NCBI GenBank assembly: GCA_013265495.1
Contig: MU057989.1
Location: 387,513 to 451,512, forward strand
Direction: 5' to 3'
DNA length: 64,000 bases
DNA from: Vicugna vicugna
Lineage: Eukaryota
Every line of letters begins with the position of its first letter. Positions within the stretch are counted from its first letter, which is position 1. The position numbers and the translations under genes were made by a program. Of this stretch, positions 852 through 39,400 are shown one piece after another. Under the pieces are notes generated by a model. It made no database searches, was not told where the DNA came from, and worked only from the letters and a program-made list of their open reading frames with translations.

Positions 852-2245
852 CTAGTAACATCATCTCCCCAATATTGCCTTCTTCCATCTCTGAGGTGGG
901 CTGCTGAACAGGATCCAGGCTAACACATTCTTCTTGGGAGTGAAATACATTCAAATCCTCAAAGACTACCAGCTCCTGAAAGACCAAAGGCCCCCTTCCT
1001 CTTAGTAACAGAGGTTCCTTGACAGCCCTCCTGTTAAGAAAGACTGAGACCCAAAGATCAGGGAACAGATGGCAAAAGGGATTTCTAAGTCCCATGCAGA
1101 CAGGATAGCCAGGCTGAGAGAAGCCAGAGGAAAAACAGAAGACAAATGTCCAAGGAGGCAGTGAAAAATGAGTCCAATCTCCCTGCTGACTCCCAAGAGT
1201 GTGTTTTTATATATGGGAGGGCTATAAAAGCAGAGGAGACAATGCAGTCAAACAGTGAACAGGAAAACTGAACCCACCTCAGGCTCAGCTTTCAAACACA
1301 GAGACACTGTCTCCTGTTTCTGCTGGATTCCTTCTCTGGGTAGAAGCTTCACTAAGGGACGAGGTTGCACTGGGGAAAGAGGAAGCTGTAGTAAATAGAA
1401 AAGTCAGTAACTCTAATATGGCAACTCTACCCACACCTTGAAGCCAGGCTATCCTCATTCCTTTGGCAGGTAACTCATTGCTTTTTATGCTCTTATGAGC
1501 CATCAGAGGTCAAGCCACAAACTACAGGGTCTTGAACCTAAATGGGGTCTCCTCATTATGAAAGGATGACCCCCCTAAGCAACTTTTAAAATTCCCACTG
1601 CTACTAAAAGGAAGGCTGGGGAAAGGTAAAGGCTGAAGATGTCCATAGTAAGCACAAAACTTCCAAAAATTCCACATGAGCTGAAGTCAATTCAATAATT
1701 TATCCACATTTCTTTATCCTAGAAAGATACTCCCCACCCCTAAAAATGTTCGAGTAAAACTAACACTACAGAAAAGATGCACGCTGATCATTCTATGGCT
1801 TTACACTTACTCAGCAAACCACTCAAGCTCCAGCTTGAAAACAAAAATACTCCCTCTCCTTGGCATGCTGACTTATTAAAATCAACTCCTTTTTCCAATA
1901 CCCATCATCCTAACCTGAATTCATTACTAACATGGAAGCCTATCTCAGTCCCCAGTAGCATCCCCTTCTCTTTGAGTGAAACAGTATGTGCTTCTTACCT
2001 CTATTCTGAAGGTTTGGGCTCACGTCCTTCATAATAACCAAGGTCTCCTTGACTTTCTGACTGGGCTGGACCAGGCTTGGCTTGGGCAAGAAGGTGAGGA
2101 AGTGCTCCAGAACTAGCTGGTGGATGGTCTTGGGCCCACTAGTAGCATCTCGAAGTAGGTCCTGGCCCAGCTTGGAGTTGGGAGGAACCCTCAGTATAAA
2201 GGATCGCTTTGGCTTTGGGGGCATAGGAACCACTTTGGCAGCCAT
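852..2245 (-). CDS. ZNF200: Zinc finger protein 200, 5' coding exons (1999-2245, 1278-1369, 852-975); the zinc-finger exon lies outside the window
   Basis: Spliced translation MAAKVVPMPPKPKRSFILRVPPNSKLGQDLLRDATSGPKTIHQLVLEHFLTFLPKP...VQPRPLVKLLPREGIQQKQETVSLCLKAEPE|ELVVFEDLNVFHSQEECVSLDP matches the recalled ZNF200 N-terminus. All GT/AG sites are present with consistent phases. Confidence 0.93.
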
Positions 2246-2949
2246 CGTGTCTTGAAATCACAAGCCACCCTTGTTTCTGCAGAGCTTCAAGAGCCACCTC
2301 TAACTGGAGGAAACCTGTCAGACAGCCACACTGCAGATGAGAGAAATTATGGGTCAGATTGGGCATGCCTGCACTCCAGTGTGTGTCTTGGGTAGTGAGG
2401 CCACAGAAGATCTAAATCCGAAGGGACAGACAAGCTGGGGTAAGGAACTCAAAACTGAAAGGAAGACGCCTCAATCTTATACTCTTAGCAAGGCCCGAAA
2501 GGAATATCCTGAGACTGAAAGCCAAAAGATGGCCAAACCTCAAGGGCCAAACAGAAGGGAGCACAGGCAGCCGGCAGAAGATCAAGGGCCATCTTCCTGA
2601 GAGAACTCCACTGGGAAGAATGGCTTAACCCATGCTGGTAGAAAAAACAATGGTCTAGAAGACAGGAAATCTGGGGTCCAATACGGAGAGCATCTGCTTA
2701 AGAAGTCAGCTTGGCCACTAAATCTGGCCTCACTGCATCTCTTCAATCGCAGGTCCCTGGGATGCCATTCGGGGTGGGGAGGGGGCAGTTGATGGCTCAA
2801 GGAGCAAACGCAAGGCCGCATCAGGTGTCTACATGTGGCTTGCTGAGTCCTTTCTGCCCTCAAAGCCCCTTAAGAGAGGCAGGGGACAGCACAGTAGGGC
2901 CCACTGGGCCAGGCCCACTCTGGAGCCTCTCCCACTGGCCAAGGGGCAC

Positions 2950-3800
2950 CTTCACCGCTGGCGGCATCGCCTGGGGCGTGCCCCAGCTACCAATCCAGCC
3001 AGGCTCCTCCAGCAATGGACTACACTCCGCTTCCCGGAGCCCGCTCAGCCTGGTTCCCGCCCTCCCGGAGTCCCTCACCTCTTGAGGTTCTGTCGCCTCG
3101 GGGCGCTCGTTGGGGACAGACCAGAGACCCAGACTCGGGGAGAGACCGGGAAACTAGGCGCGAGAGGCCAAGCCCACCTCTCGCCCTTCGGAGTGTCCTC
3201 ACAGGCAGCGGGCGACTATTGGTGTGCGCCGCCGTCAGTTGGGGAAGACGGCAAGGACGCGGTGCCTTCTGGGAGGAGGAGCGCGTCGGCAGCCGTGACG
3301 TCACGCCCGGTGCCTCGTTTCCGGTGCGGAAACTTGGTCTCCTCGTTTTGAGCGGACTGTCTGCGCTTGAGAAGGCGAGGCTCGGAGCCGGCAGGCGGAG
3401 CTTTCAGGACCGCAGGGAGGCCAGGTTGGCGGCAGCCGCTCTCCCTGCGGCTGTACTTGGGAGATGGAAGGCAGAAGGCTGGCTTCAGCCCTCCGTGACC
3501 GGCTGGCACAATTCCAGGTACGGACTGTCTGAGTCCTGTGGTTGCTGGGAAATGTAGTTCGGAAGCAAACAGCCAATGGGAGGTCGCCAGGCGAAGAGAT
3601 TGGGGTGGGGGCAGGGCTTAGGGCTCGACCGGAAGCGGGCTATTTCACGGGCCGGAAGGGCTGCAAGAGGCTACCGCAATTTCCGCTGCAGCAGCCGAGG
3701 TCGACCAAAAAACTGCGGAGGCGGCGAGTCAGTAGCGGGTCAAGGCGTCCGCCAGGTCTGGGGTCCTGCTACAGCCGTCCCTTCGTCTGGATAGCAGGGC
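2950..3800 (-). promoter_or_regulatory. CpG-island promoter of ZNF200
   Basis: CpG-rich. Palindromic CRE GTGACGTCAC 3295-3304; ZNF143/THAP11-type ACTACAnnTCCCA motif on the minus strand ~3546-3558; CCAAT ~3572; ETS CCGGAAG at ~3629 and ~3652. Confidence 0.75.
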
Positions 3801-4699
3801 TACCCCACCTTCCCCTATTTGCCAGCTTTTACACTGCGGTGTGGATTGACCGTCTTATTTTCTAAAGAATTCTAGCTTTCTTTCTCAGACCATTTCCGTT
3901 TCAGTCCTCGATTTCAGCCTCTCACGGTCGTCTAACAGCGTCTTTTCTTTCTGCATTGTTCCCTACTCGGTTAATTCCCCAGTGAGGTACTGATTAGGAT
4001 TGGGACAATACAAGGGTAGGGATTGCCTTATTCCTCTAGGTAGCACCAGCCTCAGGCAGGATGACTAAAGTGGAAATATAAATGAATCCCGTTTGTTAAC
4101 ACTAACTATAGACGACTCACTTAGCCATGGTCTAAAGCATGTTAAAACTGTGTGGCAACAAAAATTTTAAAAAAATTATACTTGCCTTTCCAGACATCAA
4201 AATTACTAAAAATCCTCGTTTAATCAATGAACTAGGAGTGAATAAGTGGAACAATAAGTGCCAAATTTGATCTGAATGTATGTGGGCCTGTATGAAAGGG
4301 TAGCAGCTCAACTTTCTGCTAGCAAAACTTGTCTGTTCTTCTGGTAAAAAAAAGTAAGGCTTCAATCCCTGAACTACTTACCCCCAAAATGGAATTTAAT
4401 AACCAGTGAAAGAGCACTAAAGAGAACGTAAAGTTTAATGTTGAGGCAAAACAGGAAACTGGGGTGCCTTAAAGTAAAATATAAACTTATGTGATTGTTT
4501 TTTTAAAAAAAAAACTTAAAAGACAAATGTCAAACAAGCAATTGACTGGAACGTAATTGTAGTAGATATGCCAGATAAAGAATTAGATAGTCCCAGCATA
4601 CAAGGAGCTTTTGTCAACTGGCAGAAAGGCTATGAAGCAAAGGCTGTGAAGTCATTCCACAGAGGAAGAAAACTATATGGTCATTAACATTTGAAAAGA

Positions 4700-7074: not shown

Positions 7075-7080
7075 TTTATT
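7075..7080 (-). terminator. Candidate MEFV polyadenylation signal (AATAAA on minus strand)
   Basis: TTTATT on plus strand, ~400 nt downstream of the ancestral exon 10 stop. Confidence 0.5.
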
Positions 7081-7478: not shown

Positions 7479-8038
7479 TCAGTGAGGCCCCTGGGTGCTC
7501 ACTGGACAGATGGTCAGAGGATCCAAGTTCTTCTCTCCATCATGTGTCCTGCGGCTAAAGATAGGTTGAAAGGGCCCAGAGGAAAAGAAGCCAGTGACTG
7601 TGTAGATGTGGGATTTACAATGTGTCACGTTGTAAAAGGAAGTGTCCCCAGCCTTGTAGTCCAGGAAGGTACCCATGTGCTTCTTCAGTTTCCCGCATCT
7701 GGTTCAGGGGAAAAGTGGATGCCTGGTACTCATTTTGCTTCATCATCATCTCTACCCAGTAACCATTCTCTAGTGACAGAGTCATAGTCTCCTTCCTGCT
7801 GGTGGCTGCCTTGCAGACACCCAGGACCCCACCTTGTCTTGTCTCCCACCTTCACTTCCCAGCAATGGTGGCTAGAGAGGAAGCTCAGAGAGCCCAGGGC
7901 AATGATTCAGCTATCGAATCTTTCTGGACTATCAGGCAGATGGTCCCACTTTTTTCCAAGTCTCACACTCTTCAAGTCATCAGAGAAGGTGAAAGATGAG
8001 GTTGGGGTGGGCAGTTTCCGCTTCCAGAATTACATCAA
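7479..8038 (-). pseudogene. MEFV: Decayed MEFV exon 10 (B30.2/PRY-SPRY domain), probably now 3' UTR
   Basis: Intact acceptor at 8039-8040, then VDVILEAETAHPNLI / FSDDLKSVRLGKKWDHLPDSPERFDS*IIALGS...WEVKVGDKT...FLDYKAGDTSFYNVT...SGPFQPIFS...LTICPV...GPH*. Disrupted by a 7-bp insertion (7988-7994), a TGA (7907-7909) and further frameshifts. Confidence 0.9.
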
Positions 8039-8186
8039 CTGCAGAGAGAATTAGAATTCCTGGCTGGAGGTCCATGGGCAACATCCCCACAGGATTCTCC
8101 CCATATCCGGGAAACATGGACAGGGTTGTTCTTCTGTAACACGCTGGGGGATGGCACAGGGACCCGGCAGGTCCAGGCCTCTCACC

Positions 8187-11100
8187 TCAGGGTGCCTGAA
8201 CACCAATCAGTTCTGGAACTACAGAGAAAAAGGAGATGGGAAAAAGAGTCCAGAGCATTCCCATTCAAAGGGGCTAAATCTACCCTGATCCCCACAACAA
8301 GAAAAGACAAGGACCTCCCTCCCTGCTCAGGACCCTGCTTCTTCTGCTTGGATATAACCCCCCTCCTCCCTGCAGCCAGGCTTGCCTTGGATACTCTGTG
8401 GTCTGGTGAGTTGACTCAGCCAATGACTCTGGCATAGAGCCTGTCATGGCTTTTCTCCCACCTTTGTTACAGGTATTTTTCTCTTTCCAAATTAATGCTC
8501 CAAAATCAATAGCCTAAGGGAAAACTGCATTAATCCCTGGCCAGCACGTACTACCTGCACCATACTCACCACTGAATGTTTCCATTTCTGAGCGCAGGGT
8601 TTCTAAAAGGAGAAAAGGAGTTTGAGTTAGGTTCCTTGGATAGGGGTAGATCTTGAAGACCCTGAAGGCAGAGTCAGAAAGGCTGTGGGAAATGGAGAAG
8701 GGACACCAGGGGGCTCTGGGCTACATGGATCTCAGGGAGAAGGTGAGCAGGTGCCTCCCATCTTCCCCCAAGCCCACCTACCCAAGAAGTGCTTCATGCT
8801 CTTCTCCACAAACTCTGATTTCTGGTAGAGCAGGTGGATCCTTTCTTTCACCTCTAGAGGGGTGGTCCGTAGCTCAGGGGCAGTTACCATCTTGGCCCTA
8901 GAAACAAAAGACAGTTGGCCTGGGAGGGCTGGAGCATGGGAGCAGCCCAAGCTCTCATGGGTTAGAAGTGAGGTGTAGCCTCCACAGGGCACACCCAGCC
9001 CAGCCTCGGCTTTGCAAAAAACGTTCTCCCTGGACTTCTGGTTCTAAACACTGGTCCTCAACTTTGGCTATGAATTGGCATCATTTGGGGGAGTTTAGAA
9101 ACCACTATATCAAAACCACAGCAAGTTTTGATAATGGCCCTAAAATGGTGCTGATATTGAAATGCTCAGCCCAGAATTACCTATGTTGAATTAATTACAC
9201 TTCCCAAATCTTTTTCTTTCTATTGAAATAAAAATGCTAATAAAGGAGAAAAAAACCCACAATGAGATACGACTTCACAGCCATTACGATGGCTACTATT
9301 AAAAAAATAAAAAATAACAAGTGTTAGCAAGAATGTGGAGAAATTAGAACCCCGTGCACTGCTGGTGGGAATGTAAGATGGTGCAGCACTGTGGGAAACA
9401 GTATTATAGTTCCTCAAAAAACTAAACATAGAATTACCATATGATTTCCACATCTCATTATATACATGCAGAAATTGAATGCAGGACTCAAATATATTTA
9501 CACTAGTATTTATAGCAGCATTATTCACAGTAGCCAAAGGGTGGAAGCAACCCAAGTATCCACTGATGGATGAATGGATAAACAAAATGTGTTATATACA
9601 TGTGATGGAATATTATTCAGCCTTAAAAGAGAATGGAATTCTGACACATTCTACAACATGGATGAACCTTGAAGCTGTTATGCTAAGTGAAATAAGTCAG
9701 ACACAAAAGCACAAATATTGTATGATTCCACTTATATGGAGTAGTTAGAGTAGTCAAATTCGTAAAGACAGAAAATAGAATGGTGGTTGCCAGGGGCTGT
9801 GGGAATGGAGAATGGGGAGTTAGTTGGTTAATGGTATGGAGATTCCATTTGGGAAAATGAAAAAGTCTGGAGATGGATGGTGGTGATGGTTGCACAATAG
9901 TGTGAATGTGCTTAAAGCCACTGAACTGTGTACATTTTTAAATGGTTAAGATGGTAAATTTTACATTAGGTATATTTTACCATCAGAAAAAAAACTTAAA
10001 AAGATTTGATTTCAAAAAAAAAAAGATTTGATTTCTGGGTCGTACTCCTGAAGATTCAGATTTAATTTGTCTCCAGGGTGATTGTAACATCCAGCCTCTT
10101 CCCCTCCCCTCCCCTGCCTGCTGGGCTTAGCAGCTCCTCTCTGGAAAGTGCTTCCCTCCCTGTGGCCACAAGCACTTTTGCTGGAACAGTTTTCATGAGG
10201 CGAATTGCATAGGACACGGTCTGTTAGGGAAGTCTCTTAGGAAGCAGTGTTCACTCCTTCCAGTCTTCAACCCATGTTCCCATTCTCCCTGCTCAAATCC
10301 AGAAAGGCCTTAGGAAGCTGCAGGAGATGGGGGGAGCCTAGGGAGGAGTCACAGACCCGGGGTTGGGTCTGCCTCCCCCAGTGTTTCCTGCAGGACACTC
10401 AAGGAATCATCAGGGAGCCTCTTGGTACCTGTGCAGGGTGACTCCGATGTCCTAGGAGAGAAAAGAGAATTTCTCCATTACCAGTCTCCTCCAGCCCCAG
10501 AGTGTTAGCAAAAAGGGGTTCCTCAGTTCTAATCCTAATCTCCGGAGGTGGTAGCCCGGCCAGGGGCCTACAACACAACTGTACCCAAACTCTGCTGCTC
10601 TCTCCTGGGAGATGCCAGGGGAATCCCCTAGATACTGGACCACTCTGGGCTCCTGAGAGCTCACTGAAGGGGTCTGGGCACAAGAGGCATTGTGGGTTAC
10701 CAAGACCAAGTCCACCCCCAGCCCTAAGGGACTCACCCACTGGCTTGGGCAGAGCTGATGGCAGTGCTGGGAGCCCATGTCATCTCACTGGGCATGGCGG
10801 ACAGGGGAAGGCCAGGCCCAGCCATACTCACCTTCATTAGTTCCCATTCTGGCTGGCACTGCTTGGCCTCCAGCTCCCCAATCAGCTCATCAAGAAGGGC
10901 GATGTCTCTGGATACTCGGGTGCCGTATGTCTCCCTGACCTGGCCAATGGTCTGTCCCAGCTCCTCCAGCCAGGCCACAAAGAGCTGCTCCTGCTGCTCT
11001 AAAAACTGGCACAACTGTTCCAACTGGTTCTGGACTCTCTGCTTCTGGGTTTCAGTTTGTTTCTGGGGAACAGAAGTCAGGGAGGTATAAGGTCTATGTG

Positions 11101-14100
11101 GTGAAGTGGATGTGTATGCCCAGGGAGAGCCCCCCAGAAGTCTTCCTTCTGGAGGTGGATGAGAGGCAGACTTCCTCAGCTTCTTGAATTCCAGAGGAGG
11201 AGGCCAAATAGGCCAAAACCTTCTAAAATAGGTTGGCTTTTAGAAAATGCCCTAAACCTGGTATTATGGGTTGAACTGTATCCCCTCCAAAATTTATATG
11301 TTAGAGTCCTAACCCCAGTACCCGAGAATATGATCTTATTTGGAAATCGGATTGTTGCAGATGTAATGAGTTAAGATGAAGTCATAGTGGAGTGGCGAAA
11401 TCTGGACACAGATACACACACGGGGAGAATGCCACGTGAAGAGACACAGGGAAAAGGTAGATTCCTACAAGCTGAAGAGAGAGGCCCAGAACATCCTTCC
11501 CTCGCAGCCCTCAGAAGGAGCCAGCTCTGCCAAGCGCTTGCCTCGATTTCTGTGGTTTAAGCCACCCATTTTATGGTACTTAATTTGGGCAGCCACGGAA
11601 ACTAAGATACTTGGTGTCACCTTCTCCCCTTGAAAGCCAGCGTGAGGATGGCATATGTCTGGGGTTGTAAATGGACAAGGTTATGACCACACAGTCTCCA
11701 GGAGGGAGACTTCTCTCCACTCCACCACGGAGTCTCAATATGGCCCTGACTAGGGGCAGTCAGTCCACTTCTTTAAATGCAGGTGAACTTGACTTTCACT
11801 ACTCCTGCACATCAGCCATTACCTCTTCTGTTGCCCTCTTTCTCATTGTCACTGAAAAGCTTCTGGGGACATTTTAAGTGGCTCTAGGGCACCTTTCCTT
11901 CCTTCAAGGAGGGAGAGGGCCCTTCAGATCCATTAAGACTGGACATAAGAAATCTTCTCATTTTTGGCTTAAATGGACAGGACTTAGTTTTTAGTTCTTT
12001 TGAACCAGAAATGTCTCCCCACCTTTTGTGTTTGATGGCAGTAACATTGACTTTTTTTTTTAAAAGAGGGCTGGTCAGTTGTCTTGTTCAATAGCTTATA
12101 TTCTAAAAGTGTCTGATAATTTTGCTCATGATTAAATTCAGGATAAATATTTTGGGCAAGAATACCATATACCTAATGCTGTGGACTTTTTAGCACATTC
12201 CATTGGGAGGTAAAGACTGTCCAGTTTGCTGTCACCATTATTGTGGTACTAGGACTGATCACTTGGTTAAGGAGGGGTCTACCAGGTATCGCCGCTGTAA
12301 AGATACAGTATTTACTTTGCAATTACTAAGTAATTTGGGGGAATGAAACTTGTAAATATCCTGTTCTCTAAAGTCTTTCTCTAAAAATTTAGCATCTGTT
12401 GAACCTGACAGTGTCAGTTGCATAGTGGAAATTTTCTAATTCAATTATTCTTCTATACTTGTTTTAGCTGTCATTATGCTATAAAGAAGAGCTTTCTCTA
12501 CCCCTTGCCTATGATTTAATTTTTTTTGATTATTGAAAAAAGGAGGAGGAGAAAGAGAATTCCTGAAAACAGCATCTCCTTTTCACAGGAGCCAACATCA
12601 CTGTGAGTATCTTAAGGGAAGGCTGGACCCTCGTGTCTCCCTGGGTTTCCCTAAGCAGCCCAGGCTCCTGCCTTCCACCTCCTTGGGGAGCATCCCTGAC
12701 CTCTGCTCTAAGCCACCTGGGATTATTGGAAAGGGTTTTTATTTTACTACAATTCAGGAGTTTCCCAAAGTCGGACACTTGGACCAATGCCACCCCCTCC
12801 CATCTGCCCTTTGTTATCTTTGCCTGTTTCCCATTGCAGTGTGGTAGGTCCCCATAGAAGTTTGGAACTCAGAGAGGGAGAAGAGATCCAACCAACAGAA
12901 ATGCAGTAGACAAATCCAGGCTCTGCGGGGTAGGCTCCTTCCCATGCAGGGAAAACAGAAGCAACTTAACGCATCCAAGAGTCTGGACAACAGCTTAACA
13001 GGAAGGCTGCTAAGGTGTACTTATTGAAATGTAGTTTTGCAAAACCAGAGTTTAAAGAAAATGTCTACTTTAACCATCTGAATTTTAAACATCAATATGG
13101 TTTTTGTAAAAAAGAAGACAATGAACAAAACAATTATAAAAACAATACAGACAAGTATTTAAAGTTGAAGAGTCTCTCTTCCTCTTTACTCAATCCCATT
13201 CCTCAAACACAGCTGTTGGCATTAGTTTCTCTAAATCATTTTGTGGTGAGTGTAAGAAAGTGTGATAGGGTCCTTGGAGATGCCCCCTCTTGCTGGGGGT
13301 GGTCTCCCTCTCCAGGAACAAGCTTGTCCCAGGACACCTGTTATCTCCCTGCCCCACAAGAACAGATGATTCTAAATACATGACCAGCTCTGCTTCCCTA
13401 TGAACCAGTATAGAATCTCAGTACTGATCACTTTCAGCTCTCTCCCTCCTGCAGGGGTGAACCCAGGCAAGGTCTGGCTACAGAACACCCCTAGCCTTAC
13501 CAGGAAGTTCTCTGTCTTCTTATCTCCCTGGGATCTCTGCTCCTCCCCAGATTTTCTTAAATCCTTCAGATGCTCCAGCTGCTTCTGAATTTGCTCCTGG
13601 AAAAAAGAACACTCATTGAAGTTTCAACTTGGCTCCTGCTATCTTTAGTTGGTGTCAACTCTAAAGGGGAAAATTTGCTTCAGAGAATAAAGCTGAGGGC
13701 GCTGCAGCCAAAAGCATAGGGAGGGGTCCCTGGAAAGAGGAAGGATGTATCTATCACACCAAGGGAAGCAAAACCAGGAGGCAGTGAGATTTCTAACGAC
13801 CTCTATGAGTACCCGGATTCAGCCATACCTGAAGTCAGATTCCCCTAGACCTCCAAGCTACATGAACCAGTAAATCCCTCTTTGCTGGCTTCATTTGTAT
13901 TGTGTTTGCCATTTACAACCCAAGAACACTGGCTAATGCACCAACCTCCCAGGGTTGTTGGGAAAATGAAGCAGGCCCCGGTGTGTTCAAGTGCCCAGCA
14001 GAGAAGGGCCCCAATGCAGGAAGCCCTACCTTGTATTCCAGGGCGGCCTCCTCAATGGGGCGTACCCGGTGTCCTTGGTGCTCCTGACTCAGCCTGCAGA

Positions 14101-17100
14101 TGAGGCAGATAGGTTCCCCGTGGTCCTCGCAGAAGAGCAACTGCACTTGCTTCATGTGACGCTTACACTGTGGCAGGGACTTGGGACTCAGGCCGACCAT
14201 CTGCAGGCCCTCCTGCTGCTCGCAACTTCCATAACTCTTCCCTGGGTGCAAGTCCTGGCACCGAGGGCAGCTGGGTGAGCGGCCGCATGAGGGCTCAGGA
14301 TCCCCAGAAGCAATAGAGCAGTTGCAGGAGTTGTGCACACAGCTGCCACCAACAGGGTCTCCTTCCTGGGCGCGGCAAAGGGGACACACAGCCTTGTTCT
14401 GCAGCCTTCCTGGGGATATAGCAATGGAAAAAAATCTGAGTGACAAACTCCAGTTGTTACCAAGGAACGCTACAAAACACATTAGAGAGAGAGAAGCCAT
14501 GCCTGGGACACGTGAGTTCTCAGACTGAGGCCTCTTCCTAACTTGTCCTCCCCTGACTTCCCTCCAGTGAGGCAGCAGAGGAGCCACTGGGACTGAGAAC
14601 TAAGGGCTAGATCTCATGATAGTCCTGAGACTTGGAATTCTTGGGTCTAAAGAAAGGCCTTTGGCTATAAATCCTATGCCTTCCCCCTGCACATAATGCT
14701 GACCTAGCAGGTGATAGAAAGACAGCGGGACATTCTGACTGGTGTTTGCTTTGTCACTTAAAACCACCCAGACCGCCCATAGCTTGAGTAGAGCTCCCAG
14801 GGGATGATAACTTGCTCATGGCTGGAACCTCAGCCTGTAGCAGAATCCCTGGTATGTGGTAAGTGTTTGGGTAAAGTGTTAAATGAAGGCACAGAGGGGC
14901 CACTGTTCATATCCAGGTTCAGAAAGCATTAAGTGACTTTACAAGGTTGAAGGCAACCCTGTGTTGTCAGATGATGGTTAACATGTTTTAGCAATAAAGT
15001 ATTTTTAAATTAAGGTATGTATCCTTTTTAGGATATAATGCTATTGCACACTTAATATAGATTACAGTATAGTGTAAACCAAAAAGTTCATAACTTGGTT
15101 TATTGCAATATTCACTTTGTTGTGGTGGTCCCGCAATATCTCTGAGGTCGGCCTGTACATTCTGGCCAAGAAGATAAATGGAGGCATCATGAGCAGCATC
15201 TAAAAACTTCTGAAAACCTTTCCTAAGTGGCTATTCTCCTTTGTCCCTCCATCCTGCTGCCTGGAACGAGGAGGCTACCATCAGAGACCATGACCTTGAG
15301 AGCAAACTCTCTGGAGCAGAAAAACCGCAGGAGCTTGGGTTCCTGGCTGTGCACGGGGTGCCACATTTGTCCTGGACCACCTGTGTGTCACTTGTGGGAA
15401 AGAGAAACAAACTTCTTTCTTGTTTCATTTATGTTATTTGGCATTTCTGTCAACCTGTCACATCCTAATTTCTGCCTCTTTAGTAAAAGAGACCTAGGAT
15501 TTTAGCCAATGGCTCCCCACCTGCCCCACCCCTGCCCAGAGAGAGGCAAACAGCAGAATCTCAGCTCCATGACATACTGCCATGGGGTATTGTGAGAAGG
15601 TGATACCCACCCTTTCCCAGATGCTCAACCTGGGCTTCATGAAGCCCTTGGGAATTCCAAAGGAGGACTTCAGAGTATCTAAGATATAACTCACTGAAAT
15701 GTATGCAACATTCTGTGAAGATGTGCATATATGCATTGTTTTTTCAGGATACAGGGCCTACATCAGATTCTCAAAGGGTTGAGGACCTCAAGGGGCACCC
15801 AGACATCCAATGAAATGAATACAGTGGGGATAAAAGCAGATTTATGGGGGAAACCTGCATAGGTCATCATTCCTAAGGAAGCCAGGTCTTCTAGATTCTG
15901 AGATCCTCTTACCTGAAGACGGATAGACTTCTGGATCTGAAGGCTCTTGGAGCACACCGCCTACCACCTCCTCCAAGGTCTTAGAGGTCTCTGAAGCCTC
16001 AATTCCATTCTGCTCTGAAGATACTGTGGATTCTGGGTGCTCCCAGGTCTTCTTTCCAGCCAATGATACATTGGAAAGTGTATTCCTGAGTGCTCCTCCT
16101 TCCAGGGTCATGGGATGTGGATTCTTGGATCCTCTCTCTGGAGCCCCAATACCCCCTACAGTCAGAATGGCCACTTCACGGGGAGTGGCTGCTGAGCCTG
16201 GATTCTCACTTCTCATTTTCTCTTGAAGCAGAAGAATTTCTGGATTGAGGGATTCTGTCTCTACTGGAGAAATGGCAAATTCAAGACTTTTGGGTCGCTT
16301 CTTTCCTGAAGGTGAATTTGCCTCAGATGTTTTCAATTCTCTCCTTCCCAGGGACCCAGCCAATGACCCACTGGAGAATCCCTGGAGCCTTCCCGCAGAG
16401 CTGGCATTCCTGCGTAGCCTGACGCTGGAATCGCTCCCCTTCTCCCCCTGAGGCTTGCTGGGGAATGGGCCTCTCTTGGAAGACGGAGTCATGTTCCTGG
16501 CCCCTGGCTTGCTCTGCACATCCAGGACCTCAGTGCCTTTCAGGTCTCTCCGTTTTCCCTGAGGCTTCTTCTGGGGCCCCCTACCAGCCTCGGGCTGGAT
16601 GGATGGTGGGCAGCCAGCCATATCACCACTTTGTCGCTGCTTGTCCCCTTCCAGGCCATCTGGTATCTTCAGGCTCTTGGGCTTAATCTCCGTAGAGGAA
16701 TAGGGCATGGCTGAGTTGTCTGTGCCACTTTCTTGCATCTGATACTCTGAAAAGACAGTGAAACGAGAAGGCATGAAAATGTCCGGTGCTCAGGATCAAG
16801 GTTTAGGGCAAGAGAGGGGAGAATCCTCTCAGAAATTAGAGAAGTTCAGGACAGTCTAGACAACAGTGGTCATTACCATTAAATAAGAACACACTCATTA
16901 TTTGCTATCTTATTTCTGAAATAGCACCTTTCAAACTTTTCTGGCAGGAGAACTTGTTACCAATATAAGGTCTTACACGGAATTCTTAATATGTAAAATG
17001 AGTGAAAACTCTAGTTTACTGGTATACATTTGTGTGTGATTATAGGTGTACAAAACTCAACCAATAAAGATCAGCAGAAAAATTTGAAATCAGGGGTTAT

Positions 17101-19032
17101 GAAGGACAGTTAAAACTTCAGGAAATAATTTCTTTCGGCTGTTTTTTTCTTTGGTTTCATGAGATGAAGAAAACCCTAACTCACGCAGATAAGTGTAATG
17201 GTGATTAAAAAAAACTTGCCTGGAAATTTCAGGATACTGTTTAACTAAACAGAAATGACAGGAAAGACTGAATTCCAAGGCCTACATAAAAAGGAGTTTT
17301 AGTATAACATGAACTATCACACTGATGGCCTCAAATATTTAAAAATTTGGTATATGATACATTTTAATATGAATGCTACTTTCATTAAGTTAAAAAATTA
17401 ATAAAATTTGAATCAAATATTTGTTAGCATTCTAAAGAATCCCTGAGATATCTTCCTGGGATAAACTTTGAAAACCACTACTCTAATAAAGAAATGAAGA
17501 TAACCTATAATTAACACCTTAATTTTTGGTGTGAAAAAGCCCTTATTAAAATTACTTTAAAGTTGCTTTAAACACTTTGCTGTTGGCTTTCTAGGAAGAC
17601 AGAAGTTACAAAACTGGCTCAAGAACTGGTGAGAAACCCTGAAGATGCTAATAGCCAGATTTTAAAATACCAAAAATTAATTTAAAAATTCTACTCATCA
17701 GATTACACCAGACTCAGATTACGGTTTAACTTTATCACTCTTCCAAAGGGCAGAGACTTTTTATGGTGTGTAAACTCTTCTGCCTTATAGAAAAACATGG
17801 AAAGCATTCCTAATGTATTCATTTCCCCCCCTAATGTATTCTTAAAGTCTAGAAATAGAAGAGAAATTCAAACATCAAAGAATAGTTTTTTAAACTGATC
17901 ACATATTAGTCCCCCACAAAGCTCCCCCGAAAGTCTTTAAAAGCAGAGATCACATAGGCCACATTCTTTGATCACAATGTAGTAAAGTCAGAAAGTAACA
18001 GCAAAAGGGCAGCAGAAGAAGATCAGGAAGGAAACAAGGAAAGAAAACAAGGAGGAGGGAGAGACAGGATGGAGAGAAAGAAAGAAAAAGAGGAAAAGAA
18101 GGAAGGAAAAGAAAAGAAAGTAGAAAGTCCTTTTAAGAATTTTAAAATACCTTTGTGGGGGAGGGTATAGCTCAGTGGTAGAGCGCATGCTTAGCATGCA
18201 TGAGGTCCTGGGTTCAATCCCCAGAACCTCCATTAAAAAAATAGTAATAAATAAATACACCTAATTACCTCCTTCCCCTCAAAAAAATTTAAAGAACACT
18301 TGTAACTGGTGCTAAAGAAGGAATCAAAACTGAAGTCAGGTGGATAACAATGAGATTACCCATCAGCCCTGTTAATATGAGTGGTGGGCAAGCGCTTCTT
18401 GCTCACCTGAAGTTCCTCGTCTGTAGGTAAGTGTTAATCACAAACGAAGTGAGGAATTCTTTGCCAACAGGCACCCAGCTCCTGCCTCTCTTGATCCTAC
18501 CCCATAGTGAGAACCTCAGCCTTTTGGGTTTTTTTTTTTAAGCCATTGGGAGCCTTAGTTTTACCCCAGCTCCAAAGACCAGAGAGGGGGAAAAGACTTG
18601 CTTGGCTTAAGTCACTAGGATTGTGGCGGACCTGGAACTCCTCACCTCCAAGTCAGGATGCACTGGTCAAACATACGTTCCCCCTTGCACCTTCCACCCC
18701 ACTCCATGAACAGCGAGTGGTCACACTGGGAGAGGAGGGGCATGAGGTCGCTTACCTGGGACAACGGCCCTGTGGAGCTCCTCTGCCAGGAGATGCTGGT
18801 TGATGGCTCTCAGGACCTGCAGGGTCAGTCGCACGGCATACTCTTCCCCATAGTGGGTGACCAGCAGAGTGGCCAGCTTCACTGGCTTGGCTGTCTGGAG
18901 TTGGCCCCGGGGGATCCGGGAGTGTTCCCTCTCCAAGCTGGTGTTCTGCAGCTTGAACTTGAACTTCTCAAAGTCATAGGGCACCAGCTCTTCCAGGGAG
19001 TACAGCAGATGGTCACTACGGGTCTTGGCCAT
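8187..19032 (-). CDS. MEFV: Pyrin (MEFV), ~673 aa: PYD, linker, B-box and coiled-coil, ending before B30.2. Exons 18756-19032, 15913-16746, 14030-14409, 13501-13596, 10832-11062, 10429-10451, 8782-8897, 8570-8602, 8187-8218 (stop)
   Basis: PYD MAKTRSDHLLYSLEELVPYDFEKFKFKLQ; B-box CKRHMKQVQLLFCEDHGEPICLICRLSQEHQGHRV. Exon sizes 277/834/380/96/231/23/116/33/33 with canonical GT-AG; seven of the nine equal the human sizes as recalled. The frame is open to TGA at 8187-8189. Confidence 0.95.
9255..9995 (+). mobile_element. LINE-1 (L1MA/L1MB-type) 3' fragment in MEFV intron 6
   Basis: aaccacaatgagatac...gctggtgggaatgtaagatggtgcag...gatgaatggataaacaaaatgt...gatggtggtgatggttgcaca, followed by an A-tail. 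Confidence 0.85.
11262..11612 (+). mobile_element. MaLR (MLT1-type) LTR
   Basis: Starts tatgggttgaactgtatcccctccaaaatttatatgttagagtcctaacccc and ends ttaagccaccc...ggcagcc...aaactaagatac, as in MLT1. Confidence 0.75.
14935..15155 (+). mobile_element. Internally deleted Tigger1 (TcMar-Tigger) DNA transposon fragment
   Basis: Ends in a Tigger1-like TIR cgcaatatctctgaggtcggcctg followed by TA; internal ttagcaataaagtatttttaaattaagg. Confidence 0.7.
18000..18125 (+). repeat. GA-rich purine low-complexity tract
   Basis: Runs of gaaa/gaag/gagg. Confidence 0.7.
18157..18290 (+). mobile_element. tRNA-Ala(AGC)-derived SINE (camelid-type)
   Basis: Head ggggagggtatagctcagtggtagagcgcatgcttagcatgcatgaggtcctgggttcaatcccc with A/B boxes, then AT-rich tail ...cctaattacctcc...A-run. 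Confidence 0.88.
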
Positions 19033-19059
19033 CGTGCTGACCAAGGGAGGCTGGAGACA

Positions 19060-19270
19060 TCTGTCTGGCTTCTGAGGGGAGCAAAAGCACTTTGGGAGCA
19101 AAAGCTCTTTGTCCTGGAGCCCAGAGGGTGAGTGAGACGAGGCAGCTTGTGAAATAACGGAAAAGGCACAGGAAATGTTCTGTGTTTTCATAGGAACTGA
19201 GACTCAGTTTGTGAGTATATCATTGCTGGCTTATGCTCTTTTTCACAGATTCAGAGTTTTCCACCTGGGA
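19060..19270 (-). promoter_or_regulatory. MEFV proximal promoter with candidate C/EBP and ETS/PU.1 sites
   Basis: Non-CpG promoter upstream of the ATG; TTGTGAAAT 19147-19155, AGGAA cores at ~19170 and ~19192. Motif matches only. Confidence 0.35.
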
Positions 19271-34849: not shown

Positions 34850-36400
34850 CGCTCCCGCAGGGCTGGACACCCCCCCCCCAAAAAAAAGCACGCCCCGGGC
34901 AAATTTAAAATCGGAAGCCGGCGGTGCAGGCTGGATCCCGAGCGGCCCCGGGGAACGTCCAGCCGCCTGCAGCGGGACCCCAGCCGGGCAGAAGATCGCT
35001 ACGGGCCACAAGCCCCACTCCCCTCTGACAGCTCGGTACGGGGCTCTCTGAAGCGCCCCCCGTGTCTTCAGGGCGCAGGCGCGATTCGCGCCACCTTGCA
35101 TCTCCCGGCAGGCCCCGCGGCGGCGCTGACCCCGGCGGGACCCGCTCTTCCCCGCCTACCCCTGGAGCGGAGCAGGCGGGCGAGTGAACCGTGGCTCACG
35201 TGCCTCTGAGGCTGCCGGGGCGGTTAGGGACTGCCTTGGAATCCGTTTTGACCGGGACGGTGATTCTTAAACTTGTCTGTGGGGGAAGAATTTCTCGGAG
35301 GGGCTCGTTAATTCAAGTTTTCGGGCTCTACCCTGATACTGAAGCACAGGATCTCGCGTGTCTTAGAGCTTTGCTTTTTACTAAGCTTTCCGAGGGGTTC
35401 TGACCTCCCCCCTAGCCGGCCGGTCACAGACGATTTGGGTTTAAGTTCCAAATGGACTTAGCAAACCAACGCGTCTCTGCCCTCCCCCAGGGACTTCTGG
35501 AGCCTCAGGGATCGCCCAGTGGCCCGGCCTCTCGTCTCCAATTGGCCCCTCGCTCTTCCCGCCTACGTAGGGAAATCTTTTCTTCTGTTTGGTCGGCGGT
35601 GAGTCTGTGGCGAGACCTGACCCAATGGGCACTTGAGTTCCCAGAACGTGACCCGGAAGTTGGTTCCGAGCAGGCGCCGATAGCTGTTGACGCCTAACGC
35701 GCGCTGGGACTTCCGGCGTGGGAGCCAAGCGCCGAGTCCTGCGTGAGTCCGCCGAGAGGGGAAAAACGCGTCATTCCGGTCCTGCTTTGGGGCGGTCCTG
35801 GCGGGGCGGGTCAGGGGTCGGCGCGGTGGCGTCCAGGACCTACTGAGGCCGACGGGCCGGAGCCAGCTGCGCCCGAGCTGGATCTGGGTTTCCTGGCCGA
35901 GACTTGGCGCCGCGGGTCCCCTGGCTCTTGGGGACTCCGGCCATCCTTGCACGGGGTCCGGAGCGATTTCCTAGACGGGCGCAGCTGGTTTCGGGGCCGA
36001 GGCGCTCCCGGGGCCTGAAGATGGCGTCGGGTCCGGGCTCCCAGGATCGGGAAGGTCTTCTGATAGTGAAACTGGAAGAGGACTGCGCCTGGAGCCAGGA
36101 GCTGCCCCCGCCAGACCCAGGTCCCAGCCCTGAGGCCTCCCACCTGCGCTTCAGACGGTTCCGCTTCCAAGAGGCCGCTGGGCCCCGGGAAGCACTCAGC
36201 CGGCTCCAGGAGCTTTGCCATGGCTGGCTGCGGCCTGAGATGCGTACCAAGGAGCAGATCCTAGAGCTGCTGGTGCTGGAGCAGTTCCTGACCATCCTGC
36301 CCCAGGAGATCCAGAGCAGGGTGCAGGAGCTGCATCCGGAGAGCGGCGAAGAAGCGGTGACCCTTGTGGAGGATATGCAGAAAGAGCTTGGGAGATTGAG
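34850..36400 (+). promoter_or_regulatory. CpG-island promoter of ZNF263
   Basis: Dense CpG; ETS/GABP CCGGAAGT 35653-35660 and ACTTCCGG ~35709; CCAAT ~35622; YY1-like AAGATGGCG overlapping the ATG. Confidence 0.8.
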
Positions 36401-39400
36401 GCAACAGGTGAGAGAAAGAGCTGTTTTATTTACGATTTGTTTGGCCCCGAGGACTGGGACACCGCGTTGGCCCAGTTCACCGTGTGAATTTACTTGGTTG
36501 CCCTCAGTAGACCTTACGTGGGCAAGAGGCCTTTTTGTAGTTTAGTCAGGAACTTTCGTTCTCCAGATTTCCCACAAGTGGATAGAGTGAGCAGTGAAGA
36601 GTGCCCTGTTTCCACATAGAGGCAGTGTCTCTGCATTAGTGTGAGCCCAGGAGTCAGCTTGCCAGTTTCAGATCCTCACTGCCCCGTACTAGCTTTTGGA
36701 CTTTGAGCAAGTTACTTAATTTCTCTGGGCCTCGGATTTGCCACTGGTGAAATGAGAACAGTAAGATATCTCAAGGGTTGCTTTGAGGATTAGAAAGAGC
36801 AGCATGTAGTTTTGATCACAGTGCTGGCTTGCAGTTAGTGTTTAATAACTGTTAGCTGTTGTTATATAAAGGTCAGCAGTCTAATATCTACAGAGCTGGG
36901 TGGCAGTTAATAGTGGACTTAGAAAAACAGTTTGGCATTGAGGTTCTGAGGGCACTTCCCCCAGGGCCACCTAAGTTTAACTTATCCAGTAGTGAGGAAT
37001 AGGTGCATCTAGAAAAGGTGGAGGAAAGCAAGAGGGAGTGAGGTGTGTCAGAAGAGCTGTGTGGGGAAGGTGTGCACTAGGAATGAACTCTCCCCCACCC
37101 CGTCCCCCAACACACATTTTCTTGGGTGTACACAGGATCAGAAAAGCCTTTAGTGGAAACCATTTTTTTCTCTTGCTGGGTCCAAAGGGATTGCTAGTGG
37201 TTCTCTATAGAAGGCTTGCCCTCAGAATTCTGTAATAATTTCCCTTCCTTTCCGGCCCTGTTGTGATGATGAGTGATGTGGGTTGGTTCCCAGGTCACAA
37301 ACCATGGGCAGGGAACAGAAGTGCTTTTGGAGGAGACTTTGCCTCTGGAAACAGCACGAGAGTCACCGAGCTTCAAGCTGGAGCCAGTGGAGACTGAGCG
37401 AAGCCCTGGGCCCCAGCTGCAGGAGCTGCTAGGCCCCAGCCCCAAAAGGGACCCCCAAACTGTAAAGGAGAGGGGTGAGGAACAGTTATCTGGGCAGGTG
37501 GGAGGGAGGAAAGGCTTTGGGATTGAGCAGAACTGCCCAGGAAAGGGCATTTCTGACCTGAGGGTTGTCAGGTGTGGAGTAAAAGACCTAAAAGTGGTTT
37601 GGGTTCCTCTAGGGGTGGGAGGAGGAGGTGGGGGATCTCTTATTAAGCCCTTTTGTATGCAGAACAGAGACATTTAGAGCTGAATAAATGATTGAGGACT
37701 TTTAATACCTGGGCCAGCAGGAGACTGCTGGTATTCTGTCGTTTTGGATACCACTTTATGCCTCAGTTGCTTTCTTTTGTTCAGTGTTGCATCCTCAGAG
37801 CAGAGCCTGGGTGTTGGGGAATGGATACTGTGTCATAATAATCCTTGGGTTGCCAAGGACTAGGAATGCCATTCTCATCATAATTTCTGTCACCTTCAGC
37901 ATTATCTACTCCCTGGCTTTCTCTCTTTCCTCCTGAAGGAAACATGGAAGACAAGGAGCTGACTGGGCCCCAGGTGATGTCGAAATTCTCATTATCTCCC
38001 CCTAGTCTGCTTCACCACATGCATCTCCCCCACCTTCTTTGTCTCCTCCACACCTCACTTGTAGGCCCGGCACCCTGCTTCCCCATGAAATGTGTCCTTG
38101 GCACCCCTGGGTTTTGCCCCTTTAACCCATGACTCTGCTTGAATTGTTCTTGGCGCCTCAGGGCCTAAAGGAGATCTTGTGCTGTTTCAGTTGCCTGAGA
38201 GCTTAGAGGACGTGGCTATGTACATCTCCCAGGAGGAGTGGGGGCATCAGGATCCTAGTAAGAGGGCCCTCTCCGGGGACACGGTGCAGGAGAGTTATGA
38301 GAATGTGGACTCACTGGGTAAGGACTTCTTTTCCAGGGATGAAGACTGAGCCATTTCTAACCAGGGTCCTGTCCCTTAGCCACTCACCTCCAGATATAAG
38401 TTCTGAGTTTTGTCAGAAGACCTGTCTTTGTCTAAAGTCCCCTGGTCTAGGATTAGTAAAATATTTGCCAAGTGCCACAGTTGGTACACTTATAGACCCA
38501 GGCTGCCAGAGCCGAAGGCAGGGAGTCTGACTTCCAGGGCAGAACAAATCAAATCCAGTGATGCACCACTCCCACTCCCCTCCCCTACACCGTCTCATCA
38601 CACGCAGTGTCACAGGATGCTCTGAGGCTTTAAGTTTTTGATCCCTGGCAATTTCAGAATGCTTAGTCTTCTGACCTCACTTATATTATCTACGCTCCAT
38701 TCGTATTTCTGGGCCCGTCCCCAGAGACACAAATTTCAGGGGCTGTGGCATCAACATTCCAGCTTAGTGGCTGTCCCGGTCCTTAAAAATTCAGGAAAGG
38801 GAAAGGCTTTGTGGAAATTTGGAAATGATATATCCAAAACAGGGTCTAAGTAAGTTAAGCATAAATTAAGATGCATCTGTGTGTTGAACTATCTATCATG
38901 CAGAGATTAAAAATGAGGTCTGTGAAATAAGACAAAAAAATCAATAGTTGGATTTAGGTGGAGAGTGTACAGATATTGTATAATTCCTTTTTTTTCCTGC
39001 ATGTGTGAAAATCCTCACAATAACAAGTTGGAGGAAGTCAAAAAACAACATGGAACAGGACCGTGTACATTATTATCATAACTCCGTTGATGCACACAAT
39101 AGAAAAGAGTCACCTTGCACTTTGTTCTCATGTGAGGTTTTTGCAAAGAGAAGCACCGCTATCATCTCACTTGAACTAGTTTGCAAGGGAGTTCCTGCTG
39201 GGTTTGGTTGCCTTCTCCGCATTCTCTCTCACTGCCATGGCTTGGTGCCCGAAGTTGAGCACAGCTCTTTCAGTGAGTGCCAGATAGGAAGAGAAGATTG
39301 CAAGTTCTTGGAGTGAAACCTTTTAGAGTCCCATGTTTGCTGCCATTGGAGTGAGCACAGTACAGGAATGGCACTTTTGGGTTTTAATCTCAGAGTCCCA

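Follow-up and report, generated by a model that had tools for sequence, protein, structure and literature searches.

The minus-strand gene described here is very probably the alpaca orthologue of MEFV (pyrin, TRIM20), from which an ancient truncation has taken the C-terminal B30.2 domain, with the rest of the gene being kept under selection. This truncation is real but already known in kind, as the RefSeq alpaca protein ends at the same stop codon and the same structure was cloned from cattle in 2016. Coordinates refer to the window, the whole 64,000-nucleotide stretch of DNA that was analysed.

Identity and domain content of the alpaca gene

Joining exons 1–9 of the minus strand gave 2023 nt with a single stop and a product of 673 aa, which agrees with the original prediction that these exons are otherwise open, and all nine introns of the alpaca gene model were GT-AG. 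Exons 1–8 were placed as follows.

18756..19032, minus strand: exon 1, ATG at 19032, PYD (Pfam PYRIN, PDB 2mpc)
15913..16746, minus strand: exon 2, 834 nt, linker with both 14-3-3 phosphoserine motifs (PDB 8c28, RefSeq identity)
14030..14409, minus strand: exon 3, B-box zinc finger (Pfam zf-B_box)
13501..13596, minus strand: exon 4, start of the coiled coil (PDB 4cg4, 8sdj)
10832..11062, minus strand: exon 5, coiled coil (PDB 4cg4, 8sdj)
10429..10451, minus strand: exon 6, 23 nt
8782..8897, minus strand: exon 7, 116 nt
8570..8602, minus strand: exon 8, 33 nt, ...ETLRSEMETFS

The 673-aa product was identical to residues 54–726 of RefSeq 'pyrin [Vicugna pacos]' (XP_006204369.2/.3, here P0001), exon 2 being 100% identical, and the two share their terminal stop. 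They differ in that the RefSeq model begins at an in-frame ATG at window position 19191, 53 codons upstream of the Met that aligns with other pyrins. This upstream in-frame stretch was the fastest-evolving part in comparison to camel (5/53 differences) and is probably untranslated.

Pfam analysis of P0001 showed PYRIN (E 8.4e-26) and zf-B_box (E 9.1e-08) alone, while the cat orthologue P0007 additionally possessed PRY and SPRY. PDB comparison matched the PYD to the pyrin PYD of 2mpc (E 4.4e-43), an exon 2 stretch to the pyrin peptide of 8c28, and the coiled coil following the B-box to 4cg4 and 8sdj. The 4cg4 entry comprises 377 aa of the human pyrin coiled coil and B30.2, and since the alpaca match was limited to its residues 3–184, the B30.2 half has no partner in the alpaca product. 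Human pyrin/TRIM20 (2mpc, 4cg4, 8sdj, 8c28) has orthologous counterparts of the alpaca PYD, phosphoserine linker, B-box and coiled coil but also carries B30.2, of which alpaca has broken remnants alone; PRY and SPRY were absent from the 673-aa product by Pfam. The gene model, Pfam and PDB matches thus agree on the B30.2-less PYD/B-box/coiled-coil pyrin of about 673 aa that had been proposed from the sequence.

Every match at E <= 0.001 (118/118) was either a pyrin/MEFV model or an unnamed relative with the same domains, and B30.2 does not define this orthologue group because it is also missing in mouse and cattle pyrin. The flanking genes encode a SCAN and C2H2 zinc-finger protein, a Tigger-derived DDE protein and a further C2H2 protein, which we take to correspond to the human MEFV neighbours ZNF263, TIGD7 and ZNF75A.

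The exon 9 stop, exon 10 decay and splice forms

The 3' end of the gene contained the following features.

8186..8218, minus strand: exon 9, 33-nt cassette, VPELIGVQAP-stop-G (sequence and gene model)
8187..8189, minus strand: TGA, final complete codon of exon 9, ending 1 nt ahead of the exon 9/10 junction
8039..8185, minus strand: intron 9, 147 nt, GT...AG intact
7479..8038, minus strand: exon 10, decayed B30.2 (PRY/SPRY) remnant, now 3' UTR (PRY and SPRY fragment matches)
7985..7991, minus strand: 7-nt insertion after ...AHPNLIF, with a frame shift to HLL-stop-stop (HSP coordinates 7992, 7984)
7907..7909, minus strand: in-frame TGA in the PRY remnant, RFDS-stop-IIALG, the position being Cys in intact species
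about 7828..7834, minus strand: net +1 frameshift after ...EVKVGDKT (HSP coordinates)
about 7682..7684, minus strand: net -5 nt frameshift between ...YQASTFP... and ...GTFLDYKAGD...
7075..7080, minus strand: candidate poly(A) signal AATAAA (sequence motif, putative use)

The exon 9 ending V-P-E-L-I-G-V-Q-A-P-TGA-G/gtgag that had been read originally was recovered at 8218..8186 of the minus strand, with codons (G)TT CCA GAA CTG ATT GGT GTT CAG GCA CCC TGA G, acceptor ...ctctgtag/TTCCAG, donor /gtgaga and a single exonic base (8186) after the TGA. Both intron 9 splice sites were likewise intact as claimed, with GT at 8185-8184 and AG at 8040-8039, the latter preceded by a pyrimidine tract.

An error of assembly or sequencing, or an allele private to the sequenced animal, is an extremely improbable explanation of this TGA. 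P0119, a second alpaca model, departs from P0001 at 4 residues and 1 indel, indicating that it was derived from other sequence, yet both terminate at the same residue, as do the models of three Camelus species, which argues against an assembly slip. Pig, warthog, red deer, zebu, horse and donkey models also end at this residue, and a cattle cDNA agrees with an exon 9 stop in the accessible part of its report (PMC4802613). A reading of the TGA as selenocysteine was set aside, the downstream exon being broken regardless.

Exon 10 was estimated at 560 nt (554+7+1-5+3, derived by hand from the alignment and gene-model coordinates) and was broken at four places, by the 7-nt insertion 16 codons into the exon, the in-frame TGA and two further frameshifts. 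Its pieces lay in three frames and retained PRY and SPRY fragment matches of 35.4 and 25.1 bits, respectively. Compared with 8 intact B30.2 domains, the remnant showed 65–75% identity, the mean identity among those domains being 81%. This decay had not been seen in the original reading of the region.

Models of other species also skip exon 9, which is an in-frame cassette, and an in silico junction of exon 8 with exon 10 gave 682 aa, with the initial 19 codons of exon 10 translated to ...PNLIFHLL and the double stop. The exon 9 TGA, originally held to cause the B30.2 loss, is thus not what removes the domain, as the skipped form loses it through the exon 10 insertion, and exon 10 has three further lesions. 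We propose that the two lesions jointly strip B30.2 from both splice forms: inclusion of exon 9 would end translation at the TGA after 673 aa (...VPELIGVQAP), while skipping would let the 7-nt insertion shift the frame, yielding the 682-aa product. Exon 10 would have decayed afterwards, acquiring one more stop and two more frameshifts, and would now serve only as last exon, 3' UTR and poly(A) site. The sole AATAAA/ATTAAA within 2 kb below the old stop was the candidate signal at 7075..7080, which by its motif would imply a 3' UTR of about 1 kb.

Stop codons less than about 50–55 nt upstream of the last exon junction are generally insensitive to NMD. The exon 9 stop lies 1 nt from the last junction, within this distance, and the stop of the skipped form lies in the last exon, so that EJC-dependent NMD should act on neither mRNA. 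Both alpaca splice forms are thus expected to evade this pathway and to be stable, as was first proposed for the exon 9 form, an expectation drawn from the 50–55-nt rule and consistent with the cattle cDNAs.

These cDNAs were cloned from cattle monocytes and macrophages by Jensen et al. (2016, Vet Res 47:46, PMC4802613), who describe, in the accessible part of the article, three MEFV splice forms that were induced by stimuli. One form (SP3) includes exon 9 with intron 9 spliced out, the stop being 'the last codon' of that exon, and another skips exon 9 and terminates early in the last exon. The alpaca gene has the same architecture, with its stop as the last codon of a short penultimate exon and, in silico, an exon-9-skipped form that a frameshift stops early in the last exon; bovine B30.2 was likewise lost by frameshifts, leaving long 3' UTRs (PMC4802613, as far as accessible). 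The endings correspond closely (zebu ...VAELIGGQAP and yak ...NLIFHLL; alpaca ...VPELIGVQAP and ...NLIFHLL), but the cattle forms are known from cDNA, whereas those of alpaca are known here from the gene sequence.

Among unnamed spliced contigs, the ORF P0165 was identical to the zebu ...QAP model (233/233) and P0135 to the pig ...IFHLL model (173/173). A protein search for camelid spliced fragments returned 44 matches, none closer than 89–90% to alpaca, the spliced fragments among them being cattle-like and pig-like only. When sequencing runs were searched with exon 2 words, 14 runs of about genome size contained all sampled words (9 flagged tentatively as DNA and 5 of no stated kind), and six RNA-labelled runs from four studies (one label being a guess) contained 0.41–0.49 of the words, which indicates neither expression nor species.

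Distribution of the lesions among ungulates and comparison with rodents

The lineage to which the original prediction assigned the truncation is wider than camelids. Comparison of exon 9 across camelids and other artiodactyls, carried out on gene models, upheld a shared stop but not a camelid-specific one, as both lesions were found in Suina, Ruminantia and Equus models and the exon 10 lesion additionally in peccary, hippo and beluga. A ...QAP end at the exon 9 stop was present in models from 11 named species (alpaca, three camels, pig, warthog, red deer, zebu, two horses and donkey), and the ...IFHLL end produced by exon 9 skipping and the exon 10 frameshift was found in camels, pig, peccary, hippo, beluga, ruminants and equids. 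The ...QAP end accounted for 14/31 cluster-member models and 2/118 representatives and the ...IFHLL end for 10/31 and 6/118, the latter amounting to 16 models of other ungulates. These endings are those of predicted gene models, and prediction guided by homology tends to make such models resemble one another, but a model that ends at a stop requires that stop in its own genome. Two camel models (P0002, P0127) that join exon 8 to window positions 3216-3617 were judged to be probable chimeric predictions.

Precomputed Pfam assignments showed that 13/13 cetartiodactyl and perissodactyl representatives lacked PRY/SPRY, while B30.2 was retained in carnivores, pangolin, bats and moles. Perissodactyl lesions were seen in Equus only (3 species), the lone rhinoceros model reading into intron 8 and being uninformative on lesions. 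Both lesions were most likely fixed once, ahead of the split between Cetartiodactyla and Perissodactyla, and since carnivores, pangolin, bats and moles keep B30.2, the lesion pair would group these two orders together. If true, the exon 9 TGA and exon 10 insertion would represent a rare genomic change that may mark the phylogenetic placement of Perissodactyla. The accessible part of the cattle report (PMC4802613) treats cattle only, in comparison to mouse, and leaves sharing of the lesions with camelids, pig or horse unstated; a statement of ungulate-wide sharing was not found in the literature searched, which excluded most subscription journals and yielded the cattle report.

Mouse pyrin resembles the alpaca protein in possessing a PYD, a linker with two 14-3-3 serines, a B-box and a coiled coil without B30.2. 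The mouse lesion is nevertheless independent, as mouse models read ...AHPNLIFSMI followed by a rodent-specific extra C-terminal stretch, whereas ungulate pyrins read ...AHPNLIFHLL and have the exon 9 stop in addition. B30.2 is still present in the models of squirrel, naked mole-rat, kangaroo rat and jerboa, which confines the rodent loss to muroids. The suggestion that the loss is convergent with that of rodents was therefore well founded, both in the distinct ...NLIFSMI and ...NLIFHLL ends and in the B30.2 kept by non-muroid rodents. The muroid and ungulate frameshifts fall no more than one or two codons apart, and this double cut at the same site may reflect a slippage-prone pyrimidine run, or a situation in which only an NMD-safe cut exactly there would leave a working sensor.

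Taken jointly, these observations make it reasonably probable that B30.2 was lost once in the ancestor of even- and odd-toed ungulates through the exon 9 TGA and the 7-nt insertion, that the truncated gene was kept by selection in every ungulate line examined, that the lesion pair supports a grouping of Perissodactyla with Cetartiodactyla, and that pyrin was cut twice at the same coiled-coil/PRY border, including the independent muroid frameshift. Ungulates look like a second and much older natural experiment, besides muroids, in a pyrin inflammasome without B30.2. This bears on what the domain contributes in humans, where most FMF mutations fall in B30.2 (PMC6698799, accessible part), and livestock or camelid cells may provide B30.2-less models other than mouse.

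Constraint on exons 1–9 and predicted function

Lesions were absent from the 2019 nt upstream of the stop in comparison to four in the 560 nt of exon 10; at exon 10 density, 14.4 would be expected upstream, and the probability of all four falling in exon 10 was 0.0022. Exons 1–8 of alpaca were 63–76% identical to the same 8 species used for the B30.2 comparison, which are 69% identical among themselves. Protein branch lengths were not longer than in B30.2-keeping species, the distance from the laurasiatherian node averaging 0.250 across 13 ungulates without B30.2 and 0.284 across 13 species that keep it (carnivores, bats and pangolin). Differences between alpaca and camel were concentrated in the linker (18/278) in comparison to the folded parts (6/395; Fisher P = 0.001), with none in the PYD (0/92).

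Both motifs of the phosphoserine test, RRNAS-S and KRP(K/R)S-LE (human S208/S242), were present as putative phosphorylation sites at alpaca S208 (RRNAS-S) and S246 (KRPKS-LEF) in 673-aa numbering. They align with orang S208/S242 and mouse S205/S241 and were kept in all 13 aligned species shown. Judged from proteins, lesion counts and one species pair (alpaca and camel), exons 1–9 look to be still constrained.

It is accordingly very unlikely that the whole of MEFV is a unitary pseudogene whose exons 1–9 are open by chance or recency. Such a loss has a precedent in the MEFV loss reported in elephants (PMC7671337, accessible part), and in cattle the protein was undetected with four anti-human antibodies and siRNA knock-down had no effect in Salmonella infection, according to the accessible part of PMC4802613. 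The B30.2 lesions are shared across ungulates and hence old, yet the upstream ORF is still open, being intact in models of alpaca, camels, pig, warthog, hippo, beluga, deer, sheep, yak, horse, donkey and rhinoceros. The confinement of lesions to exon 10, the unraised branch lengths, the linker-biased substitutions with a PYD identical at 92/92 positions and the retained phosphoserine motifs all argue against a pseudogene and are typical, domain by domain, of a constrained gene, and the stimulus-inducible cattle transcripts (PMC4802613, accessible part) point the same way. These results support the original view that this is not a dead gene, and 'gene loss' screens can take such a domain loss for a dead gene.

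The truncated protein retains the B-box and coiled coil along with the PYD, the ASC-recruiting domain, and the two serine positions at which phosphorylation by PKN1/2 leads to 14-3-3 binding. By analogy with mouse and human work, alpaca pyrin most probably acts as mouse pyrin does: lacking B30.2, it would guard RhoA activity and nucleate an inflammasome with ASC and caspase-1. The accessible part of PMC6698799 describes the role of the 14-3-3 serines and presents mouse pyrin as a functional RhoA-guard inflammasome sensor.

Alternatively, MEFV may be expressed but act as a PYD decoy or a regulator of ASC or autophagy instead of a sensor, or the 682-aa skipped form may be the main product, so that the junction stop matters little; we regard this pair of alternatives as improbable. 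A non-sensor role would fit the unchanged Salmonella response after cattle knock-down (PMC4802613, accessible part) and the release of mouse pyrin from inhibition without B30.2, called unclear in the accessible part of PMC6698799. The latter source also describes, however, that B30.2-less mouse pyrin is regulated via the same two serines and forms an inflammasome upon RhoA inactivation, and alpaca has lost none of these serines, nor the PYD, B-box or coiled coil. A leading role for the skipped form would agree with its models and spliced contigs in pig, camels, ruminants and equids, whereas the exon 9 peptide VPELIG.QAP and its splice sites have been kept in the alpaca, pig and horse lines, which hints that exon 9 inclusion is still used.

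Structure of alpaca MEFV and loss of B30.2

To place the exons of MEFV (pyrin), the best database relative was aligned to the window by tblastn and the borders were then inspected; all nine introns were GT-AG. The original prediction of a stop 1 nt before the last exon junction was confirmed in every detail when the sequence, stop position and splice sites were read.

MEFV exons and lesions in the window
19032..18756, 16746..15913, 14409..14030, 13596..13501, 11062..10832, 10451..10429, 8897..8782, 8602..8570, 8218..8186, minus strand: exons 1–9
8218..8186, minus strand: exon 9, 33 nt, preceded by ...ctctgtag and followed by gtgaga, reading (G)TT CCA GAA CTG ATT GGT GTT CAG GCA CCC TGA G
8187–8189 (plus strand numbering), minus strand: exon-9 TGA, with a single exonic base, 8186, after it
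about 7985–7991, minus strand: 7-nt insertion directly after ...AHPNLIF, yielding HLL and two stops
7907–7909, minus strand: in-frame TGA, Cys in intact species
after ...EVKVGDKT, minus strand: net +1 shift
before ...GTFLDY, minus strand: net −5 shift
exon 10, minus strand: one extra in-frame codon

Exons 1–9 joined (2023 nt) contained one stop and encoded 673 aa, equivalent to residues 54–726 of P0001, the RefSeq entry 'pyrin [Vicugna pacos]', to which exon 2 was 100% identical; the truncation at the exon-9 stop is already in the RefSeq annotation. Each of the 118 database matches was either a pyrin/MEFV model or an unnamed relative of identical domain make-up. Pfam analysis of alpaca pyrin showed PYRIN and zf-B_box and nothing more, cat pyrin having PRY and SPRY additionally. 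PDB matches included the human pyrin PYD (2mpc) and coiled coil (8sdj), and the match to 4cg4, a 377-residue coiled-coil/B30.2 chain, was limited to residues 3–184.

Overlooked in the original prediction was that exon 10, encoding B30.2, is itself dead. It starts at 8038 behind an intact acceptor (ctctctgcag, then TT), and its B30.2 coding sequence is split over three frames by lesions placed from tblastn coordinates against cat pyrin. Hand arithmetic (554+7+1−5+3) reproduces the 560 nt observed, leaving no lesion unaccounted for. Exon-10 fragments still matched PRY (35.4 bits) and SPRY (25.1 bits, slightly below cut-off), and the remnant, with X at breaks, was 65–75% identical to eight intact B30.2 domains in comparison to a mean of 81% among those domains, an extra divergence of the size that would be expected from long neutral drift. 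Exon 10 would persist in the role of last exon and 3' UTR, and the next 2 kb contains a single AATAAA, at 7080.

The TGA had been proposed as the cause of a B30.2-less protein, which holds for the form including exon 9 and is insufficient alone, as exon 9, a 33-nt cassette that preserves the reading frame, is skipped even in models from species keeping B30.2 (panda P0028, sifaka P0054). A transcript skipping it in silico lacked the exon-9 stop and was terminated by the 7-nt insertion at 682 aa (...PNLIFHLL); the two lesions would therefore jointly strip B30.2 from both splice forms. Stops within 50–55 nt of the last junction, or in the last exon, should not trigger EJC-dependent NMD. As the first stop lies 1 nt from that junction and the second inside the last exon, neither mRNA is expected to trigger it, and we infer that both escape NMD.

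Distribution and age of the truncation

The original prediction spoke of this lineage; the truncation is not restricted to camelids, the same C-terminal ends occurring in other ungulate gene models. Ends were inspected in predicted models from the 118 cluster representatives and 31 members of six clusters. The ...QAP end, formed by the exon-9 stop, was found in 14/31 members (alpaca twice, Camelus ferus, C. bactrianus/dromedarius, three further dromedary models, pig, warthog, red deer, zebu, horse/Przewalski, donkey and one Equus UniRef entry) and ...IFHLL in 10/31 (camels, pig, yak, buffalo, red deer, muntjac, horse, donkey), the remaining 7/31 ending otherwise via intron read-through or other predictions. 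Among the 118 representatives, ...IFHLL was found in beluga, hippo, peccary, donkey, muntjac and sheep. According to the precomputed Pfam column, PRY/SPRY was absent from all 13 cetartiodactyl and perissodactyl representatives and present in carnivores, bats, Manis javanica, star-nosed mole and desman. Public assemblies also yielded two spliced ORF fragments, both unnamed, that agree with these ends: P0165 was identical to the zebu ...QAP model (233/233) and P0135 to the pig ...IFHLL model (173/173).

Since both lesions are common to cetartiodactyls and Equus, they are either older than the Cetartiodactyla/Perissodactyla split or arose identically twice. A double origin of the same 7-nt insertion and particular stop is unlikely, and the gene models compared point to an apparent single origin before the split; among perissodactyls the lesions are evidenced solely in Equus, as the rhinoceros model runs on into intron 8. 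The ruminant pyrins, clustered at 90%, were grouped with TOM20 proteins of cattle, panda, a fish and a kiwi; at the head of this cluster stands an 844-aa 'hypothetical protein' of Bos mutus, evidently a gene model produced by fusion that pulls unrelated proteins into the group.

The alpaca truncation is a copy of this old ungulate-wide truncation, already described in cattle. The accessible portion of Jensen et al. 2016 (PMC4802613) describes the same arrangement in MEFV cloned from Bos taurus and B. indicus monocytes/macrophages, with three splice variants, two C-terminal isoforms, long 3' UTRs in all, B30.2 lost by frameshifts as in mouse, and all variants induced by stimuli. By analogy, alpaca would transcribe and splice MEFV as cattle do. 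Words sampled from alpaca exon 2 were present at 0.41–0.49 in six RNA-labelled runs (one label a guess), a word match that alone is no evidence. Full MEFV loss is reported for elephants, and not for ungulates, in the accessible portions of Sharma and Hiller 2019 (PMC7671337) and a 2024 preprint (PMC11014510). A literature search, with subscription journals mostly outside its scope, retrieved no publication that describes the lesions as common to ungulate orders.

Maintenance and proposed function of the truncated gene

The original reading proved largely right and its feature real, and its view that this is not a dead gene was upheld by lesion distribution, branch rates, identity, kept serines and the alpaca–camel pattern, lines of sequence evidence that agree in suggesting that the rest of MEFV is alive. 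No lesion was found in 2019 nt upstream in comparison to four in 560 nt of exon 10; the chance of all four landing in exon 10 was 0.0022, and 14.4 would be expected upstream at exon-10 density. In a maximum-likelihood tree (LG+G4, quick search) of 40 pyrins trimmed to exons 1–8, hand-picked from the representatives and cluster members, the 13 ungulates lay on average 0.250 from the laurasiatherian node (alpaca, 0.219), and the 13 carnivores, bats and pangolin that keep B30.2 lay on average 0.284 from it. Across exons 1–8, alpaca was 63–76% identical to eight B30.2-keeping species, which averaged 69% among themselves. Alpaca and camel, whose comparison covers time long after B30.2 loss, differed at 0/92 positions in the PYD, 6/395 in folded parts and 18/278 in the linker (Fisher P = 0.001). 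The exon-9 peptide (VPELIGVQAP in alpaca and camels, VPELIGGQAP in pig, VAELIGGQAP in zebu and deer, VPELIGAQAP in horse, VPELIGAQAHA in intact species) has remained nearly unchanged in its ten residues since becoming the C-terminus, and the splice sites are likewise kept; this conservation hints that exon-9 inclusion is still under selection.

Alpaca S208 and S246, in the RRNAS-S and KRPKS-LEF motifs, correspond in the alignment to S208/S242 of orang and S205/S241 of mouse, and both serines were conserved in all 13 displayed species, alpaca included. The accessible text of PMC6698799 assigns both a role in PKN-dependent 14-3-3 binding, and describes B30.2-less mouse pyrin as restrained by phosphorylation and 14-3-3 and forming an inflammasome on RhoA inactivation. 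Alpaca pyrin probably works likewise, in that it would be kept inactive by phosphorylation and 14-3-3 and, upon RhoA inactivation, would nucleate an ASC inflammasome. A different or reduced role for the truncated pyrin, which we consider improbable, draws on the negative cattle results in the accessible portion of PMC4802613, where the protein was undetected on blots with four anti-human antibodies and knock-down left the Salmonella response unaltered.

Muroid parallel, other short pyrins and flanking features

Mouse models end ...AHPNLIFSMI and ungulates ...AHPNLIFHLL, the independent muroid frameshift (proteins P0090, P0093, P0104) lying 1–2 codons from the ungulate 7-nt insertion (window 7985–7991, minus strand); the proteins compared place two separate truncations of pyrin at one coiled-coil/PRY border. 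The alpaca cut site adjoins the pyrimidine run TCTTTCACCTTCTCT. The apparent single origin, the long upkeep of a truncated gene and this near-coincident frameshift are what remains of most interest.

Short forms P0018, P0026 and P0050 read past exon 9 into the following intron (...AQ.HAGKC... or ...AQAHAVKC...); as such models occur in B30.2-keeping groups, a short, B30.2-less pyrin may be widespread as a minor product. Myotis lucifugus has a B30.2-less isoform model and retains B30.2 in a different isoform (P0041). Artibeus and Amazonian manatee also have B30.2-less models; dugong (P0101), the manatee's relative, keeps B30.2.

RefSeq alpaca and camel models use an in-frame ATG that lies 53 codons ahead of the Met aligning with other pyrins (window 19033–19191, minus strand). 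This stretch differed between alpaca and camel at 5/53 residues in comparison to 0/92 in the PYD, and is therefore probably 5' UTR instead of protein. N-terminal extensions are also present in the cat and beluga models.

In two models from camels (P0002, P0127), exon 8 is joined to an ORF at window 3216–3617 (minus strand), 5 kb below MEFV. The alpaca ORF there matches their C-terminal 100+ residues and sits inside a GC-rich stretch (2001–4000); the joining is probably an artefact of chimeric gene prediction spanning an adjacent CpG island and does not mark a genuine alternative last exon.

Neighbouring ORFs
35847–41620, plus strand: SCAN-domain exon and block of nine C2H2 fingers
47453–48961, minus strand: intact 502-aa Tigger-derived ORF (CENP-B_N, HTH_Tnp_Tc5, DDE_1)
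60970–61674, plus strand: five-finger C2H2 exon

These presumably fit the surroundings of human MEFV, in the order ZNF263, TIGD7, ZNF75A.
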